DNA of 64,000 bases from positions 22,636-86,635 of the forward strand of contig JANOCI010000015.1 of assembly GCA_031412095.1 (NCBI GenBank), given 5' to 3'. This document shows positions 3,213 to 14,198 of this stretch, piece by piece; the first letter of the stretch is position 1, and each line of letters begins with the position of its first letter. Source of the stretch: Bosea sp. (in: a-proteobacteria). Its GTDB lineage: Bacteria; Pseudomonadota; Alphaproteobacteria; Rhizobiales; Beijerinckiaceae. The notes beneath the pieces are model-generated. The model was given only the letters and a program-made list of their open reading frames with translations. It was not told the DNA's origin and made no database searches. A program made the position numbers and the translations under genes.

Positions 3213-6200
3213 TCACACCGCCTCCCTGATCTGCTCGGCCGTCTCCAAGTCGACCGACACGAGCTGCGACACTCCGCGCTCCGCCATCGTGACGCCGAAC
3301 AGCCGGTCCATGCGCGACATCGTGATCGGGTTGTGCGTGATCACGACGAAGCGGGTCTCGGTCTGGCCGACCATGTCGCGTAGCAGATCGCAATATCGCT
3401 CGACATTGGCGTCATCCAGCGGGGCGTCGACCTCGTCCAGCACGCAGATCGGCGACGGATTCGTGAGGAAGACCGCGAAGATCAGCGCCGTCGCCGTCAG
3501 GGCCTGCTCGCCGCCGGAAAGCAATGTCATGGTCTGCGGCTTTTTGCCCGGGGGGCGCGCCAGGATCTCGAGGCCGGCCTCCAGAGGATCGTCCGAATCG
3601 ACAAGTGTCAGCTCCGCCTCGCCGCCGCCGAACAGCACGCCGAACAGCCGCTTGAAATGGCCGTTGACGATCTCGAACGCAGCCAGCAGCCGCTCGCGGC
3701 CTTCGCGGTTCAGCGAGCCGATGGCCTGCCTGAGCCTGCGGATCGCCTCGGTGAGGTCATCGCGCTCGCGGATCAGCGCATCGCGCTTGGCCTCGATGTC
3801 GACCAGCTCCTCGTCGGCGCGGAGATTGACAGCCCCCAGCCGCTCGCGGTCGCCCTTGAGCGCGCCCAGACGCCGCTCGGTCTCCGCCGCGGCAGGCAGA
3901 TCGGCACCAGCCGGGACGCCGGCGAGAGCGAGCAGACCTTCCGGCGCGACGCCCAGATTATCGGCGATGGCGCGTGTCACGTCCCCAAGCCGGGCGTGGG
4001 CGGCCTCGAGGCGCGCTTCGCTGGCGGCGCGTGCCTCGCGCGTGCCTGCGAGCGCATCGAGAGCCAGGCGCGCCGCCTTGTCCGCCTCCGAGGCCAGCGT
4101 CTCGGCGCGCGCCAGTTCGTCGGCGGCCGCCTTCCTCTTGGCGTCGGCCTCTTCGATCATCGCCGTCATCTCGCGGCGGCGGACCAGGAACGTATCGGGC
4201 GCTTCGGCGAGGACGGCCGCCTCGGCCTCCGTCGCCTGCCTGCGCTTGGCGGCTTCGTCCCGCGCCTCCTGCGAACGCGCGATGCGCTCGCGCCAACGGC
4301 CGATCTCGGCGGCGGCGACGCCAAGGCGCTCGCGGCGCAGGGCATCCTCGCGCTCGATGGTCTGCAGCGTGGCGCGCGCCTGCACCGCGGCCAGCCGGAG
4401 CTCCGCCACATGGATGCCAGCATGCGCAAGGGCCGCTTCGAGCTCCTGGGATGGCGAGAGCGAAGAAAGCCCGTCCTCCGCCTGCTGCCGCGCGAGCCCT
4501 GCCTCGACCTCCGATGCGGCCAGGCGTCCGACGCCTTCCGCGAGGCTGGCGCGGCGGGAGGCCTTGTCCGCGATCCTGCGCTCGGCCTGCGCCAGCTGCT
4601 CGCGCGCCTGGTCAAGTCCGCGGCGTAGCTCACGCGCCAGCTCGATCGCCAGCGTCTCCGCCTGCGCAGCCTGGCGCACCCTTGCCTGAACGGCGTCGAA
4701 CGCTTCGCGGGCAGTTTCCGCTTCCTCCCGCGCCGCCTGCGCGTCGCGCTCGAGGTCTCCCAGCCTGTTCTTCTCGGCCAGACGCCGCGCGGCGGGCGTC
4801 GGCGCCTCGGCGGCTGCGATGAAGCCGTCCCAGCGCCACAGGTCGCCCTCCTTCGACACGAGGCGCTGCCCAGCCTTGAGCTGCTGCATCAGCCTGAGCC
4901 CATCGGCGCGAGCGACGACGCCGATCTGCCTGAGGCGCCGCTGCATGGCGGCGGGCGCGCGGACCTTGCCAACCAGCGGCTCGGCGTCGCCCGGCAGCGT
5001 CGGATCGGACTGATCGACGCCCAGATCCCGCCAGTGGGCGGGGGCCGATGGATTGGACGACGCATCAAGGTCCTCGCCGAGCGCTGCGCCGAGCGCCATC
5101 TCATAGCCTTTCTGCACGGCCAACTGGTCAAGCACCGGCGGCCAAAGATCGCTCGACGGGCCGGAGAGCAACTTCTGCAGCGTGCGCACCTCAGTCTCGA
5201 GCCGCTGCGCCTTGCGGTCCGCCTCGGCTTGCGGAACACGGGCTTTCTGCTCCGCCTCGCGTGCGGCGGCAAGGGCCTGGCGCGCCGCCTGGGAAGCGGC
5301 CTCCGCCTGCCCCACGCCGGTCGCCGCCGCCGCCAGCCGCTCACGGAGCGCCTCGACGGCAGGGCCGGCCCCGCTATCTGCGTCCAGCTCGCTCAAGGAC
5401 CGCTCAAGCCCTTCGCGCTCACTGCGATGGCGCGCCGCGCGGCCGGCGGCGTCACGGAGTGCGCGCTCAAAGGCAGCCCGGCGCGCGGTGATGTCGGCCA
5501 GTGCGGACTGGGCCTTGGACTGAACGGCTTCCGCCGCCGCCAAGGCTACCTCCGCCGCATCCTGCCGTCCGACGGCCGCAGCCCTCAGTTCGGCGCCGCC
5601 AAGGCTTTGAGCCTTCAGCCGGGCCTCCTCGTCGGCAAGACGGGCCAGGCTCGCCTCCGCATCGACCGACACGCCCGCCTCGCGCGCCAGGTCCGCGTCG
5701 AGCTCCGCCATGCGGCGCACCAATTCCTCGGAACGCTGCCGGTTGCGCCGGTCCTCCGCCTCCAGCTCATCAAGCGCCCGGCGGACACGGACCAGCGCCG
5801 CGGCGGCGGCGGCCTCCCTGTCCCTGAGGGCGGGCATGGCGTGCGCCGCCACGGCCTGATAGCGGGCGGCCTCGGCCTGTATGCGGGTCGCATCGGCGAC
5901 GTCGCGCAGGGCCGCCTCGGCAGCGCGTTCGGCGGCGGCGGCCTGGCCCCGCGCATCACGATGGCTGATCGCAGCCAGCAGCGCCTCGGCGGCCCGGATG
6001 TCGGCGGCGAGCGCCTTGTAACGCCCTGCCTGCCGCGCCTGCCGCCGCAGAGCCTCGATCTGCGCATCGATCTCGCGCAGCACATCCTCGAGGCGCACGA
6101 GGTTGTCTTCGGCGGCCCTCAGCCGCAGTTCCGCCTCGTGCCGGCGCGCATGAAGCCCGGCGATCCCCGCCGCATCCTCCAGGATGCGCCGCCGCGACTG

Positions 6201-10214: not shown

Positions 10215-11081
10215 TCACATCCCGCCTGTCACGCCCTTGGGCGGCGGCATGTCGTCGGGCACGAAGAAGTCCGGCGCGAGCGGCTTGGCGGGGTCCACGC
10301 GGTATTGCAGGAAGTCGGTGACGCCTTCGGAGGCGAGGAACGTATCGTCGATCAGGAAATTGCCGCTGAATTCGCGCGAGTCCTTAACGAAGATGGCGTG
10401 CGCCGCGTCCGCCATGATCTCCGGCGTGCGGCTCATCTGCATGAGTTCGTCGCCGACCACATACTTGATCGCGCTGGTGGCGATGGTCGTGCGCGGCCAG
10501 AGCGCGTTGACCGCGATGCCATGGCGGCGAAACTCGCCTGCGAAGCCCAGCACGCACATGCTCATGCCATACTTTGCCATCGTGTAGGCGACGTGCGGCG
10601 AGAACCACTTCTCCTTCATGTCGAGCGGCGGCGAGAGCATCAGCACATGCGGGTTGGCGGCCTTCGCCAGATGCGGCATGGCGTGCTTCGTCGTCATGAA
10701 CGTGCCGCGCGTGTTGACCCCGTGCATCAGGTCGTAGCGCTTCATGTCGGTGGCGGCGGTCGGCGTCAGCTGGATGGCGGATGCGTTGTTGACCAGGATG
10801 TCGATGCCGCCGAACGTCTCGACCGTGCGCGCGATGGCCGATGCGACCTGGTCCTCCTCGCGCACGTCCATCTGGATCGCAAGCGCCCGCCCGCCGGCGG
10901 CCTCGATCTCGCGGGCCGATTCATGGATCGTGCCGGGCAGCTTGGCGTGCGGGTCGGAAGTTTTCGCGGCGATCGCCACGTTCGCCCCGTCCCGGGCGCA
11001 GCGCAGGGCGATGGCGAGGCCGATCCCGCGCGAGCCGCCGGTGACAAAGACGGTTTTTCCAGCCAGCGGACTGCTGCTCAT
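10215..11081 (-). CDS. SDR-family NAD(P)-dependent oxidoreductase
   Basis: TGGSRGIG cofactor motif, NNAS, and a YxxxK-type active-site region (YTMAKYGM). 288 aa. Confidence 0.85.
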   Translation of the reverse strand: MSSSPLAGKTVFVTGGSRGIGLAIALRCARDGANVAIAAKTSDPHAKLPGTIHESAREIEAAGGRALAIQMDVREEDQVASAIARTVETFGGIDILVNNASAIQLTPTAATDMKRYDLMHGVNTRGTFMTTKHAMPHLAKAANPHVLMLSPPLDMKEKWFSPHVAYTMAKYGMSMCVLGFAGEFRRHGIAVNALWPRTTIATSAIKYVVGDELMQMSRTPEIMADAAHAIFVKDSREFSGNFLIDDTFLASEGVTDFLQYRVDPAKPLAPDFFVPDDMPPPKGVTGGM

Positions 11082-11935
11082 GGCGTGATCTCCTCGTAGG
11101 CTTGCGTGAAACGCGCCGGCTGGCTGCCGTCATCGTCGGTGAAATGATACGCCTTCGCCAGATCGGCGACGTGCAGGATCTGGCCGGAATGGCGCATGAC
11201 TTCGGCGTCCGCAGCAAGCGAAGCCACCGCCCGCCCGGCATAGCGCGGCGTCTCGGTGGCCTCCTGCCCCTGGCCGGCTTCGATCACGCGCTCGGTGCGC
11301 ACGAAGCCGGGCGACAGCGCAAGCGCGGTGACGCCATAAGGCCTGAGCTCTGCGGCCATCGCCAGCGACAGCCGGTTCATCGATGCCTTCGCGACATCGT
11401 ATACGACGTCGCCGAGGTAGCCCGGCGCGGTGTCGAAACTGATGGTGACGATCAGGCCCCGCTTCGCCGCGACCATCGCGGGGGCCACGGCGCGCGAGGT
11501 CAGAAACTGCGCGTAAAGGCCCGTCTCCAGCGCCTTGCCGAGCATCTGCGGCCCTCGGCGCCAGAATGGCGTGCCGAACTGCGACCCGTCCGCGTGCCGG
11601 ACTCCGTCGAAGCCTTCGTTGCCGCCCCAGACCGCGTTGACGAGCAGGTCGATGCGGCCGAAGCGCCGCAAGGCCCATGACACAAGCGTGTCGACCTCGC
11701 GCTCCCTGGTGTGGTCGCAGACATAGTGATGGCCATGGCCGCCGGCGGCGTCGACCTCGCGGGCCGCATCCTCGATCACCTCGCTGCGCTGATCCGTGCG
11801 CGGCCCGGCTTCCGTCGAGCGTCCGGTCACGATCACCGTGGCTCCGGCTTCGCCAAGCGCCCGCGCCACGCCGCGCCCGACGCCGCGCGAGGCTCCGGCG
11901 ACCAGACAGACATATTTATCAACTAGAGCTATCAT
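11078..11935 (-). CDS. SDR-family oxidoreductase (atypical GASRGVG motif)
   Basis: VAGASRGVGRGVA Rossmann motif and YDVAKASM active-site region. Its stop overlaps the next SDR start (ATGA). I prefer ATG 11935 (MIALVDKY...); the alternative is 11971. Confidence 0.8.
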   Translation of the reverse strand: MIALVDKYVCLVAGASRGVGRGVARALGEAGATVIVTGRSTEAGPRTDQRSEVIEDAAREVDAAGGHGHHYVCDHTREREVDTLVSWALRRFGRIDLLVNAVWGGNEGFDGVRHADGSQFGTPFWRRGPQMLGKALETGLYAQFLTSRAVAPAMVAAKRGLIVTISFDTAPGYLGDVVYDVAKASMNRLSLAMAAELRPYGVTALALSPGFVRTERVIEAGQGQEATETPRYAGRAVASLAADAEVMRHSGQILHVADLAKAYHFTDDDGSQPARFTQAYEEITP

Positions 11936-11937
11936 CA

Positions 11938-12381
11938 CTAATTGTTTAGCGGCGGCAGCTCGTGCTGCCATGCAAGCAAAACAAACGAACCAATTGCGTG
12001 AATCATATATGATCCCGCAGTTACAAATGAAATTATCCTCCAGTCAGTATCGCTTTCTTTTGAAATATAACCAATCATTATTATAACGATAAAAGATAAA
12101 GCAATCGTATTAATGAAATTTGCATGAAGTTTAATCTGTTCGTTTGTTATTTGTGATGTGTTTTTATCAATATATTTTTTATGTTTAAACCTAGATACAA
12201 GAAAAAATGCAACAACTAAAGTGATAATCCAAAATATAAAAAATAGTATAACACTTTCTATCAATTCTCTCTCGCTGAATTTATGCGTTGACACAGAAAT
12301 CAACGGATAAACTGTGATAAATAGAAATACATTTAATATAATTGAACTAAATGTCCAGCTTCGAAATATTGTCTGTTGCAT
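11938..12381 (-). CDS. hypothetical 4-TM membrane protein encoded by an AT-rich island (orphan)
   Basis: 147-aa ORF with ATG 12381. It starts 20 nt after the acyl-CoA dehydrogenase stop and its TAA ends 2 nt before the SDR ATG. Four hydrophobic segments. I counted 96 G+C in 12001-12360 (27%) versus 46/60 in the 12421-12480 flank. Confidence 0.6.
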   Translation of the reverse strand: MQQTIFRSWTFSSIILNVFLFITVYPLISVSTHKFSERELIESVILFFIFWIITLVVAFFLVSRFKHKKYIDKNTSQITNEQIKLHANFINTIALSFIVIIMIGYISKESDTDWRIISFVTAGSYMIHAIGSFVLLAWQHELPPLNN

Positions 12382-12401
12382 TTGAAAATCTCTCTGTTTT
12401 A

Positions 12402-14198
12402 TCAGCTCGCCAGCGCAAGCGGCGCGTCATGCACTGAGGCGGCCCCGCCCGTGACCGTGACCTCAAGCCCCTGCGCCGCCGTGAGCAGGTTCTCCGCGAA
12501 GAACCGCGCCAGCGCGATGCGCCCGGCATGGGCAGGGTTGGCGTCGCCGCCGGTCATCGCGTTGTCCGCCGCCAACGCGATGACCGCGAGGCCGGCCGCT
12601 CCCTGCGCCAGGCCGAACAGGCGCAGATAGGGCGTGGCCCCGGCCAGCGCATCGTCCGGACGGTTGCCCGCGACGGCGCCCGACATCCAGCTCGTGGCCC
12701 TGTCGAGGCACTCGTTGGCGTCGCGCATCCGGGCCGCCATCTGGCCGAAGGCCGGGTTGCGGCAGGCGGACACGGCACCTTGGGTCTTCCGCAGGCGCGC
12801 GATGGCCGCGCGCACGGTGGCGCCGCCGGCCAACGGAAGCTTGCGCTGCACAAGGTCGATGGCCTGGATGCCGTTGGTGCCCTCGTAGATCGTCAGGATC
12901 CGGGCATCGCGCATGTGCTGGGCCGCGCCGGTCTCCTCGACGAAGCCCATGCCTCCATGCACCTGGATCCCGATCGAAGCGACCTCGACGCCGATGTCGG
13001 TCGAGAAGGCCTTCGCCACCGGGGTGAGCAGCGCGCCCATCTCGGCGGCGGCTTTCCTGGCCACGGGATCGGCGACGTGATGCGCCTTGTCGAGCTCCGC
13101 CGCGGTCAGATAGCAGATGGCGCGAGACGCGTTTGTCAGCGCGAGCATCGTCATCAGGTTCCGGCGCACGTCGGCATGCTCGATGATCGGGCTCATGCCA
13201 TCTCCGGCGAAGCCCTGGCTGCGGCCCTGCCTGCGCTCGTTGGCATGCCAGAGCGCCTGCTGGTAGGCGCGGTCGGCGATCGCCACGCCTTGGATGCCGA
13301 CGCCGAGGCGCGCGTTGTTCATCATCGTGAACATGCAGGCGAGGCCGCGGTTCTCCTCGCCGATCAGGTGGCCCACCGCGCCGCCCGCATCGCCGAAGAC
13401 CATCGTGCAGGTCGGCGAGCCATGGATGCCCAGCTTGTGCTCGATGCCGGAGCAGCGCACGTCGTTGCGGGCGCCGAGCGATCCGTCCGCGTTCACCAGG
13501 AATTTAGGCACGAGGAAGAGCGAGATGCCGCGCGTGCCGGCGGGCGCGTCGGGCAGGCGCGCCAGCACCAGATGGATGATGTTGTCGGTCAGGTCATGCT
13601 CGCCATAGGTGATGTAGATCTTCTGGCCGGTGATGCGGTAGCTGCCGTCGGGCGCGCGCTCGGCCCTGGTGCGCAGGGCGCTCAGGTCCGAGCCCGCCTG
13701 CGGTTCGGTCAGGTTCATGGTGCCCATCCATGCGCCCGAGACCAGCTTTTCGAGATAGGCGTCCTTGAGAGGCTGCGCGCCATGCACGGTCAGCGCCTCG
13801 ATCGCGCCGCAGGTGAGCAGCGGGCCAAGCGCAAAGGCCAGCGACGCGGCATTCCACATTTCAAGGCACGGCGCGTTGATGAGCGCCGGCAGCCCCTGGC
13901 CGCCATATTCCTCCTTGGCGGGGAGAGCATTCCAGCCTCCTTCAGCCCAGGCGGTGTAAACCTCCTTCCAACCGGCGGGCATCGTCACCGCGCCGTCCTT
14001 GAGAGGCGTGCCCGCCTTGTCGCCAACCCGGTTGAGAGGCGCGATCCGGTCCGCGGCGAACTTGCCGGCCTCCTCCAGGATCGTCGCCACAAGGTCGCTG
14101 GAAAGCTCGGGATAGACGCCATCCCTAATGGAACGGCCAAGGCCTGCCACCGCATCGAGCGTGAACAGCATTTCCTCGACGGGTGGGCGATAGGTCAT
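12402..14198 (-). CDS. large (about 600 aa) acyl-CoA dehydrogenase
   Basis: 598 aa. ACAD N/M/C domains (LTEPQAGSDL, ...IYEGTNGIQAIDLV...) plus the extra C-terminal helical domain seen in long-type ACADs. Confidence 0.9.
   Translation of the reverse strand: MTYRPPVEEMLFTLDAVAGLGRSIRDGVYPELSSDLVATILEEAGKFAADRIAPLNRVGDKAGTPLKDGAVTMPAGWKEVYTAWAEGGWNALPAKEEYGGQGLPALINAPCLEMWNAASLAFALGPLLTCGAIEALTVHGAQPLKDAYLEKLVSGAWMGTMNLTEPQAGSDLSALRTRAERAPDGSYRITGQKIYITYGEHDLTDNIIHLVLARLPDAPAGTRGISLFLVPKFLVNADGSLGARNDVRCSGIEHKLGIHGSPTCTMVFGDAGGAVGHLIGEENRGLACMFTMMNNARLGVGIQGVAIADRAYQQALWHANERRQGRSQGFAGDGMSPIIEHADVRRNLMTMLALTNASRAICYLTAAELDKAHHVADPVARKAAAEMGALLTPVAKAFSTDIGVEVASIGIQVHGGMGFVEETGAAQHMRDARILTIYEGTNGIQAIDLVQRKLPLAGGATVRAAIARLRKTQGAVSACRNPAFGQMAARMRDANECLDRATSWMSGAVAGNRPDDALAGATPYLRLFGLAQGAAGLAVIALAADNAMTGGDANPAHAGRIALARFFAENLLTAAQGLEVTVTGGAASVHDAPLALAS

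Follow-up and report, generated by a model that had tools for sequence, protein, structure and literature searches.

Whether bacterial ORFans, genes that are typically short and AT-rich, arise de novo, by extreme divergence or by transfer from unsampled donors is debated, the last being one of three recognised origins (PMC12315717; PMC3514957). The AT-rich ORFans described by Daubin & Ochman (2004; reviewed in PMC12315717), Yu & Stoltzfus (2012; PMC3514957) and Cortez et al. (2009; PMC2718499) are the closest described counterparts of the element reported here, an AT-rich block of 490 nt (positions 11912-12401) that separates an acyl-CoA dehydrogenase (ACAD) gene from a short-chain dehydrogenase (SDR) gene in a 64,000-nt stretch of Bosea sp. 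(GenBank assembly GCA_031412095.1, contig JANOCI010000015.1, positions 22,636 to 86,635; hereafter the window, whose internal positions are used throughout). Like these ORFans, the block is short, far richer in AT than its host, confined to one lineage, without a homologue and presumably derived from an unsampled donor, and it displays the features expected of a horizontally acquired ORFan, namely deviant composition, an empty orthologous site in relatives, no detectable homologue and an open reading frame (ORF) that appears genuine. Most ORFans are found among clustered atypical genes or within integrative elements, whereas the block stands alone in a conserved operon, with 490 nt whose limits 14 empty sites define to the base; its contrast with the host, at about 40 points of G+C content (GC), is extreme. 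The locus reveals no new kind of system and matches a horizontally acquired AT-rich ORFan.

Other described systems share parts of this profile. The phage morons of Juhala et al. (in 2000) and Hendrix et al. are reportedly single extra genes, often of deviant composition, lying between neighbours that are adjacent in relatives. The block resembles them in contributing one gene of deviant composition, with no mobility function of its own, between genes that adjoin each other in relatives; however, morons sit in prophages, typically with their own promoter and terminator, whereas the block lies outside any prophage in a housekeeping operon, contains no terminator-like site and overwrites the start of the next gene. 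Integron cassettes, including those inserted at secondary sites, are said from the work of Recchia, Hall and others to be promoterless elements, about 0.5 kb in size, in which a short leader precedes one ORF, often an orphan, that relies on an external promoter. The block shares their size, leader and single orphan ORF, but it has no attC site and no integron integrase nearby and is not a member of this class; neither boundary presents a RYYYAAC / GTTRRRY core pair on either strand, and its sole palindrome folds like shuffled sequence.

The PeSL mobile regulatory cassettes of T4-type phages (PMC2839356) are likewise orphan genes swapped between conserved genes and bordered by short junction motifs, but they are promoter and stem-loop repeats of phage genomes, whereas the block shows one imperfect pair of 10-nt repeats and no repeated regulatory motif. 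Finally, MucR silences AT-rich foreign genes in alphaproteobacteria (PMC9410896, PMC8857273), and the block resembles such silenced accessory genes in being foreign AT-rich DNA in a GC-rich alphaproteobacterial chromosome. The targets known for MucR, in contrast, are islands of greater size or symbiosis genes that have promoters of their own, and MucR binding at this operon-embedded gene is presumed.

The ACAD-SDR joint and its empty counterparts

All genes of the region lie on the minus strand, on which the features below are also read. The ACAD gene (598 aa, 14198-12402; Pfam Acyl-CoA_dh_N/M/1/C) ends at a TGA codon (12404-12402) with a C-terminus (...APLALAS*) that is native, intact and conserved in relatives. 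The block follows immediately, with a 20-nt leader (TAAAACAGAGAGATTTTCAA, 12382-12401) and an intact ORF of 147 codons (ORF147, 11938-12381; ATG at 12381, TAG at 11940-11938), and 2 nt (TAGTGATG) separate the stop of ORF147 from the ATG (11935) of the SDR gene (SDR1, 11935 to 11078, native part 11078-11911; Pfam adh_short, 1e-27). With its GC-rich patch included the block has 30% GC, and about 27% without it, against 72% and 73% in its 500-nt flanks. Its deviation from all other 490-nt windows (mean 67.4%, sd 3.2%, minimum 58.6%) amounts to z = -11.6, and the block is unique in the 64 kb, where no other place falls below 51% GC. The initial annotation had described this arrangement correctly, placing a 147-aa ORF on the strand of its neighbours, 20 nt after the ACAD stop and 2 nt before the SDR ATG, and its counts of 96/360 G+C in 12001-12360 and 46/60 in 12421-12480 are exact.

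To compare this joint with that of relatives, the SDR was used to search public genomes and metagenomes, with the peptide MIALVDKY as an additional scan pattern. The search returned 68 loci, the nearest of which are Bosea or Hyphomicrobiales metagenome-assembled genomes with 77-88% SDR identity. In 14 Bosea-clade loci with ACAD-SDR synteny, the ACAD stop and the codon of the conserved SDR Cys are 36-51 nt apart, compared to 493 nt in the window. In all 14, the ACAD ends in ...PLALAS* and is followed by a GC-rich spacer of 12-27 nt and a GTG or ATG SDR start, the SDR N-terminus of relatives reading M(T/P)xLANR(I/V)-C-L-V-A-G-A-S, and the block shows no similarity to any of these loci. On comparative grounds, the 14 empty sites of 36-51 nt against 493 nt thus identify the block not as a local gene but as DNA that, in this lineage only, took the place of the spacer and of SDR codons 1-8. 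The comparison of this junction across relatives, proposed in the initial annotation, speaks against a gene inherited vertically throughout the genus, as the insert is absent from 14/14 Bosea-clade loci. Because the ancestral site, as judged from these relatives, holds only about 40 nt, and given the compositional difference of about 40 GC points, de novo birth of ORF147 and divergence of a pre-existing local gene can both be excluded. Local hypermutation was rejected on the same ground, the relatives having no sequence of such length at the site.

The block had initially been ascribed to a recent foreign source. Composition and the empty sites uphold the foreign origin, but its recency is only loosely constrained: the best SDR match among 5.8 billion protein clusters is 88% identical, and no closer strain that could date the insertion was found in these searches.

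The insertion also remodelled the start of SDR1. The new SDR start and seven foreign codons (11912-11935; ATG ATA GCT CTA GTT GAT AAA TAT, encoding MIALVDKY) are AT-rich and fused in frame to the native SDR, replacing the M(T/P)xLANRI of relatives, and native sequence resumes at GTC TGT CTG GTC. The AT-rich composition had been thought to extend over nine SDR codons; this holds for the first eight, but the ninth, GTC, matches relatives and is probably native. The peptide MIALVDKY was found nowhere else in the genome and metagenome collections scanned and in no SDR homologue, which, together with the GC-rich joint of 36-51 nt in the 14 related loci, corroborates the suggestion of a remodelled junction. 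The resulting protein has 285 aa, against 284 typical of relatives, and its alignment retains every conserved motif, with a native part that is intact and 77-86% identical to Bosea-clade homologues. In an AlphaFold model computed on the family alignment (predicted local distance difference test, pLDDT, 81; predicted template-modelling score, pTM, 0.84), residues 1-8 form a coil and strand β1 comprises residues 9-13. As the eight foreign residues precede strand β1 and are not part of the Rossmann core, replacement of the N-terminus is expected to leave the SDR fold intact.

The same data bear on whether the block could have arisen through chimeric assembly, through contamination or through insertion in the laboratory or in silico. 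Both junctions are very neat, one coming right behind a stop codon and the other preserving the reading frame and the native length of the N-terminus; the block sequence is met nowhere else, and neither the ACAD of the source genome nor ORF147 has a record in the public gene index. The flanks, however, are collinear with those of relatives, where they lie about 40 nt apart, so that a chimera needs two precise joins; the longest repeat at the boundaries is 10 nt, and no k-mers are shared that would be long enough to misguide an assembly. The block resembles no vector, plasmid or phage, and a designer would have left the amino acids of the SDR unchanged. We regard an artefact or construct as improbable.

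Several observations concern the SDR start itself. Its reading frame is open for 36 codons upstream of the ATG (11936-12043), well into the foreign block, and an in-frame ATG at 11971 would yield a protein beginning MAARAAAAKQLVMIALVDKY, that is, an SDR of 297 aa overlapping the end of ORF147 by 34 nt; the 297-aa SDR is therefore an alternative gene model. The eight foreign codons share 10/24 nt with the native codons of two relatives (L001 and L002), where about 5 would be expected between AT-rich and GC-rich sequence, and Met1, Ala3 and the number of codons are likewise kept. Such sharing could reflect chance, selection or a partly native origin of the 11912-11935 segment. In two Salinarimonas loci (L019, about 3850-4000; L026, about 3890-4045), an AT-richer region of about 49% GC precedes the SDR homologue in place of the ACAD, and the SDR N-terminus differs (MNDINASST in L019, a related variant in L026), again stopping just before the conserved ALVAGAS strand; replacement of the SDR N-terminus at exactly that point therefore appears to have occurred more than once. 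A more distant relative with an SDR 68% identical (L051, JGI24113J20146_1003032, 1284-2070) carries a different insertion at the ACAD-SDR joint, consisting of a GC-rich gene of 209 aa on the opposite strand and, immediately before the SDR start, about 120 nt of spacer with a GC content of about 21%. Given this locus, the joint may be a recurrent site of rearrangement.

AT-rich islets also occur elsewhere in related GC-rich genomes (L006, 7421-7780; L008, 7801-8000; L035, 7761-8140). These islets, of 200-400 nt and 28-37% GC, are intergenic, contain no ORF longer than 68 aa and have no similarity to the block of the window, and small AT-rich islets appear about once per 100-150 kb in the related loci sampled. 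Those of L006 and L035 were considered as kin of the block and rejected, as they are intergenic, lack long ORFs and are unrelated to it in sequence.

Coding character and orphan status of ORF147

The statistics of its reading frame identify ORF147 as a genuine coding sequence rather than a chance open frame. None of 20,000 shuffles of the block reaches a stop-free run of 147 codons (mean longest run 55, maximum 141), ORF147 is the sole open frame of six, the other five containing 5-16 stops each, and T is enriched (44%) at the second codon position. As a caveat on this coding character, the AT bias of its synonymous codon choice is only moderate. The organisation of the encoded protein also departs from that of shuffled residues, with a maximum 19-residue hydropathy of 3.18 (P = 0.0018) and P values of 0.0054 for the variance and 0.0055 for the minimum of the hydropathy profile.

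The four hydrophobic helices initially ascribed to this product fare less uniformly. Roughly four segments can be delineated (residues 9-31, 43-63, 92-112 and 117-139, approximately), but their Kyte-Doolittle means distinguish two of strong hydrophobicity (1.67 and 2.80) from two weaker ones (1.20 and 1.29). A single-sequence AlphaFold prediction likewise yields four helices, at low confidence (pLDDT 61). A Lys/Arg-rich loop of 28 residues follows the second helix, and predicted cytoplasmic segments contain 7 Lys+Arg residues against 3 in periplasmic ones, which fits a topology with both ends in the cytoplasm. The product is accordingly predicted to be an inner-membrane protein of about four helices with both termini cytoplasmic.

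No homologue of ORF147 was detected in about 15 billion proteins or in plasmid, phage, viral and metagenome collections, the raw DNA of GTDB genomes not having been scanned for it. A word-seeded search of 5.8 billion clusters returned nothing at E <= 1, and a full phmmer search of 1.84 billion representatives returned a single match (P0001), which was rejected as spurious since it corresponds to a motif of 24 residues (VVGYENNGSDSDWKIISYS) of which a soluble repeat protein contains six copies. Searches of plasmids, phages and E. coli genomes with tblastn and blastn produced only chance fragments below 50 nt, and scans of metagenome and viral contigs with back-translated peptides, in which identical DNA would also show, produced nothing. 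Comparison with PDB sequences was equally negative, and the best Foldseek match of the ORF147 model to the PDB has E = 0.89. Matches to Pfam are all weak and far below family cutoffs, and those to PHROG are likewise weak, almost all of them concerning families without an assigned function. The best NCBIfam match is to the PmtB-type ABC-2 permease NF047560, with 21.5 bits (E = 1.7e-4) against a curated cutoff of 100 bits. It is about tenfold better than the best result of seven reversed or segment-shuffled ORF147 controls (E = 1.7e-3), which was obtained against other membrane families. Assignment to PmtB was rejected as compositional, the match being below cutoff with controls near it and phmmer matching no such protein. 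Across these collections, ORF147 is an ORFan and a member of no known family.

A lone small membrane protein of this kind had been read in the initial annotation as the profile of a toxin, an abortive-infection effector or an immunity-type gene. Many defence and toxin genes are accessory and AT-rich, and a small, predictedly polytopic membrane protein of foreign composition encoded by a single orphan gene could have been imported as such a stand-alone selfish or defensive gene. The argument from profile is weak, given that AT-rich codons tend to encode small hydrophobic products, so that a hydrophobic protein is the default of an AT-rich coding sequence. Moreover, no PADLOC, PHROG, Pfam or NCBIfam match to ORF147 reaches its threshold (the best PADLOC match has E = 0.043 at 11.6 bits), no known fold is matched, and no antitoxin, partner or regulator gene accompanies it.

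The neighbourhood is housekeeping and metabolic and not a defence island. A second SDR gene (SDR2, 10215-11081), which overlaps the stop of SDR1 and is thus also downstream of the insert, is followed by glyQ, and the surrounding genes encode SMC, a DsbA-like thioredoxin, DciA, MutY, GlyQ, the two SDRs, ACAD, Sua5/TsaC and DoxX, as well as a LysR regulator, a Zn-dependent dehydrogenase, an MFS transporter and a cell-wall hydrolase. Both tests of a known anti-phage defence or abortive-infection effector, model match and location in a defence island, were negative. A membrane toxin of the type I toxin-antitoxin class, usually of less than 60 aa and paired with an antisense RNA, was rejected because the product has 147 aa and no Rfam family matches the block region at E <= 1, nor any part of the 64 kb at gathering score. 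We therefore do not retain the proposed toxin, abortive-infection or immunity role, which we consider quite unlikely.

The GC-rich patch, the junction repeat and classes of mobile element

The AT-rich sequence of the block is interrupted by a GC-rich patch that had been reported as 24 nt long (11951-11974). The patch is real and unique in the window, and spans 26 nt (11948-11973) at 73% GC; it encodes AWQHELPP, a portion of the C-terminus of ORF147, and contains the in-frame ATG (11971) that lies upstream of the SDR start. It has no second copy in the window or the 68 loci, and the only matches there that might suggest a host origin are chance 12-mers. An inverted repeat within it (GGCAGC-acga-GCTGCC, 11969-11964 / 11959-11954) folds no better than shuffled sequence (z = -0.2) and has no T-run, and was rejected as a terminator or structured site. 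The block as a whole contains no terminator-like site and three promoter-like sites, against 1.2 ± 1.1 expected in shuffles (within about 1.6 sd). A promoter-like site within the block, GTGATA-17-TATAAT (12314-12342, plus strand), agrees with consensus at 10/12 positions and is antisense, directed toward the 3' end of the ACAD gene; spurious promoters such as this one are expected in AT-rich foreign DNA.

In agreement with the initial annotation, scans of the neighbouring genes identified no integrase or transposase, and no phage or defence gene either; there is no tRNA gene in the 64 kb, and no long repeat surrounds the block, the longest at the junctions being of 10 nt with one mismatch. A classical genomic island or integrative element was rejected for want of integrase, transposase, tRNA or flanking direct repeats of at least 15 nt. 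The 10-nt repeat, AG(C/T)TGATAAA (AGYTGATAAA, repeat family D11), matches at 9/10 positions and lies exactly on both junctions. Its left copy (AGCTGATAAA, 12398-12407) includes the ACAD stop codon and its right copy (AGTTGATAAA, 11915-11924) falls within the new N-terminal codons of the SDR. A 9/10 match at the junction positions occurs in 0.9% of shuffles (P about 0.009), although this test was devised after the repeat had been seen. Target duplication or single-crossover (Campbell) integration at the repeat was rejected, as it predicts an ancestral joint (GAGCTGATAAATATGTCTGT) without an SDR start, contradicted by the 14 empty sites. An insertion sequence or miniature inverted-repeat transposable element was rejected in turn, there being no terminal inverted repeats and the AGYTGATAAA duplication being incompatible with those same sites. 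The repeat is possibly microhomology or coincidence.

The repeat, the layout of the block (a short leader, one ORF and the start of the next gene) and the different insertion at the ACAD-SDR joint of L051 would also suit a tiny mobile cassette without recombinase, mobilised in trans and targeting operon junctions through a recombination core AGYTGATAAA. Against such a cassette, target duplication or a single crossover would require the ancestral joint that all 14 empty sites contradict; moreover, the block lacks attC-type core sites, terminal inverted repeats and any significant hairpin, and no collection searched contains a second copy. We deem it very improbable. Equally remote is a more ambitious proposal in which the block would belong to a class of undescribed minimal 'operon-hitchhiker' cassettes, each made up of a short leader that provides a ribosome-binding site, a single ORF, and a new start and N-terminus for the gene downstream; they would be bounded by AGYTGATAAA and inserted at stop-start junctions, so that they are expressed while the operon stays undisturbed, and their cargo would be a new family of small membrane toxins or immunity proteins.

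Probable capture and tolerance of the block, and its significance

Our preferred explanation, which we hold to be probable, is that the block is AT-rich DNA from an unsampled donor, captured by illegitimate recombination and carrying an ORFan passenger that is tolerated because it leaves downstream translation unblocked. In a Bosea-clade chromosome broken at the ACAD-SDR joint, repair by end-joining or by a microhomology-type process would have captured a foreign fragment, with the loss of about 33-48 nt of native sequence, namely the spacer of 12-27 nt and SDR codons 1-8. As native spacers measure only 12-27 nt in relatives, translation of the SDR is plausibly coupled to that of the ACAD. Ribosomes would then pass from ACAD to ORF147 and on to SDR1, ORF147 relaying them over 490 nt that would otherwise be untranslated. 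The leader contains a putative Shine-Dalgarno sequence, GAGAGA, which is weak and purine-rich and ends 7 nt 5' of the ORF147 ATG, where it may serve initiation.

An insertion that was not in operon orientation, with a start close to its upstream edge and a stop abutting the SDR start, would silence two SDR genes and be lost. The present insert would persist because it lies in operon orientation, with ORF147 starting 20 nt after the ACAD stop and its own stop abutting the in-frame SDR ATG. The apparent precision of the splicing would then reflect which insertion events survive, rather than targeting. The SDR ATG that follows the ORF147 stop may be no more than the initiation codon of whatever gene came next in the operon of the donor, and the membrane protein itself is most probably a passenger without a role in the chemistry of the operon.

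Several points weigh against this explanation. The insert is carried by one genome only, ORF147 is known from sequence alone, at the DNA level, and neither its donor nor a second copy of it was found in the collections searched. Its GC content varies little from the first to the third codon position (0.33/0.30/0.27), a weaker periodicity than is usual for genes of AT-rich genomes, and its Shine-Dalgarno-like element is weak, while neither candidate SDR start has such an element. The last 11 codons of ORF147 cross the GC-rich patch, and ORF147 may be a 3'-truncated fragment of a longer original gene, with an accidental C-terminus. Finally, simple end-joining would be expected to leave less tidy junctions than these, which comprise an in-frame fusion of the same length and, on both sides, a direct repeat matching at 9/10 positions.

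Some of these same features would be expected if the block were a dead remnant, a scrap of a larger foreign gene or region in which ORF147 is unexpressed or functionless and remains open only because the event was very recent. The near-flat codon positions, the weak ribosome-binding site, the absence of any homologue in the collections searched and a C-terminus made by a patch of different origin, suggestive of 3' truncation, all favour it, as does the MucR silencing expected for AT-rich DNA in alphaproteobacteria (PMC9410896). On the other hand, ORF147 fills the block almost exactly, starting 20 nt from its 5' boundary, and neither its length, unmatched in the shuffles, nor its helix-and-loop organisation is that of random sequence; in addition, the arrangement holds the downstream SDR in frame and coupled. 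The initial annotation had linked a decaying remnant to a gene with no homologues anywhere, and the locus presents only half of this picture, given that homologues are lacking but ORF147 is intact and not decayed. A dead remnant is, in our estimation, unlikely.

As captured AT-rich DNA, the block is an expected target of the xenogeneic silencer MucR, and its silencing could dampen the downstream SDR genes. What sets this locus apart is the size of the compositional jump and the resolution of its boundaries to the base pair around an intact orphan gene. It offers a natural test bed for the integration of foreign DNA without mobile-element machinery, for the tolerance of operons to insertion through translational coupling and N-terminal replacement, for MucR silencing of AT-rich DNA within a transcribed operon, and for the rate at which foreign DNA drifts toward the composition of its host.

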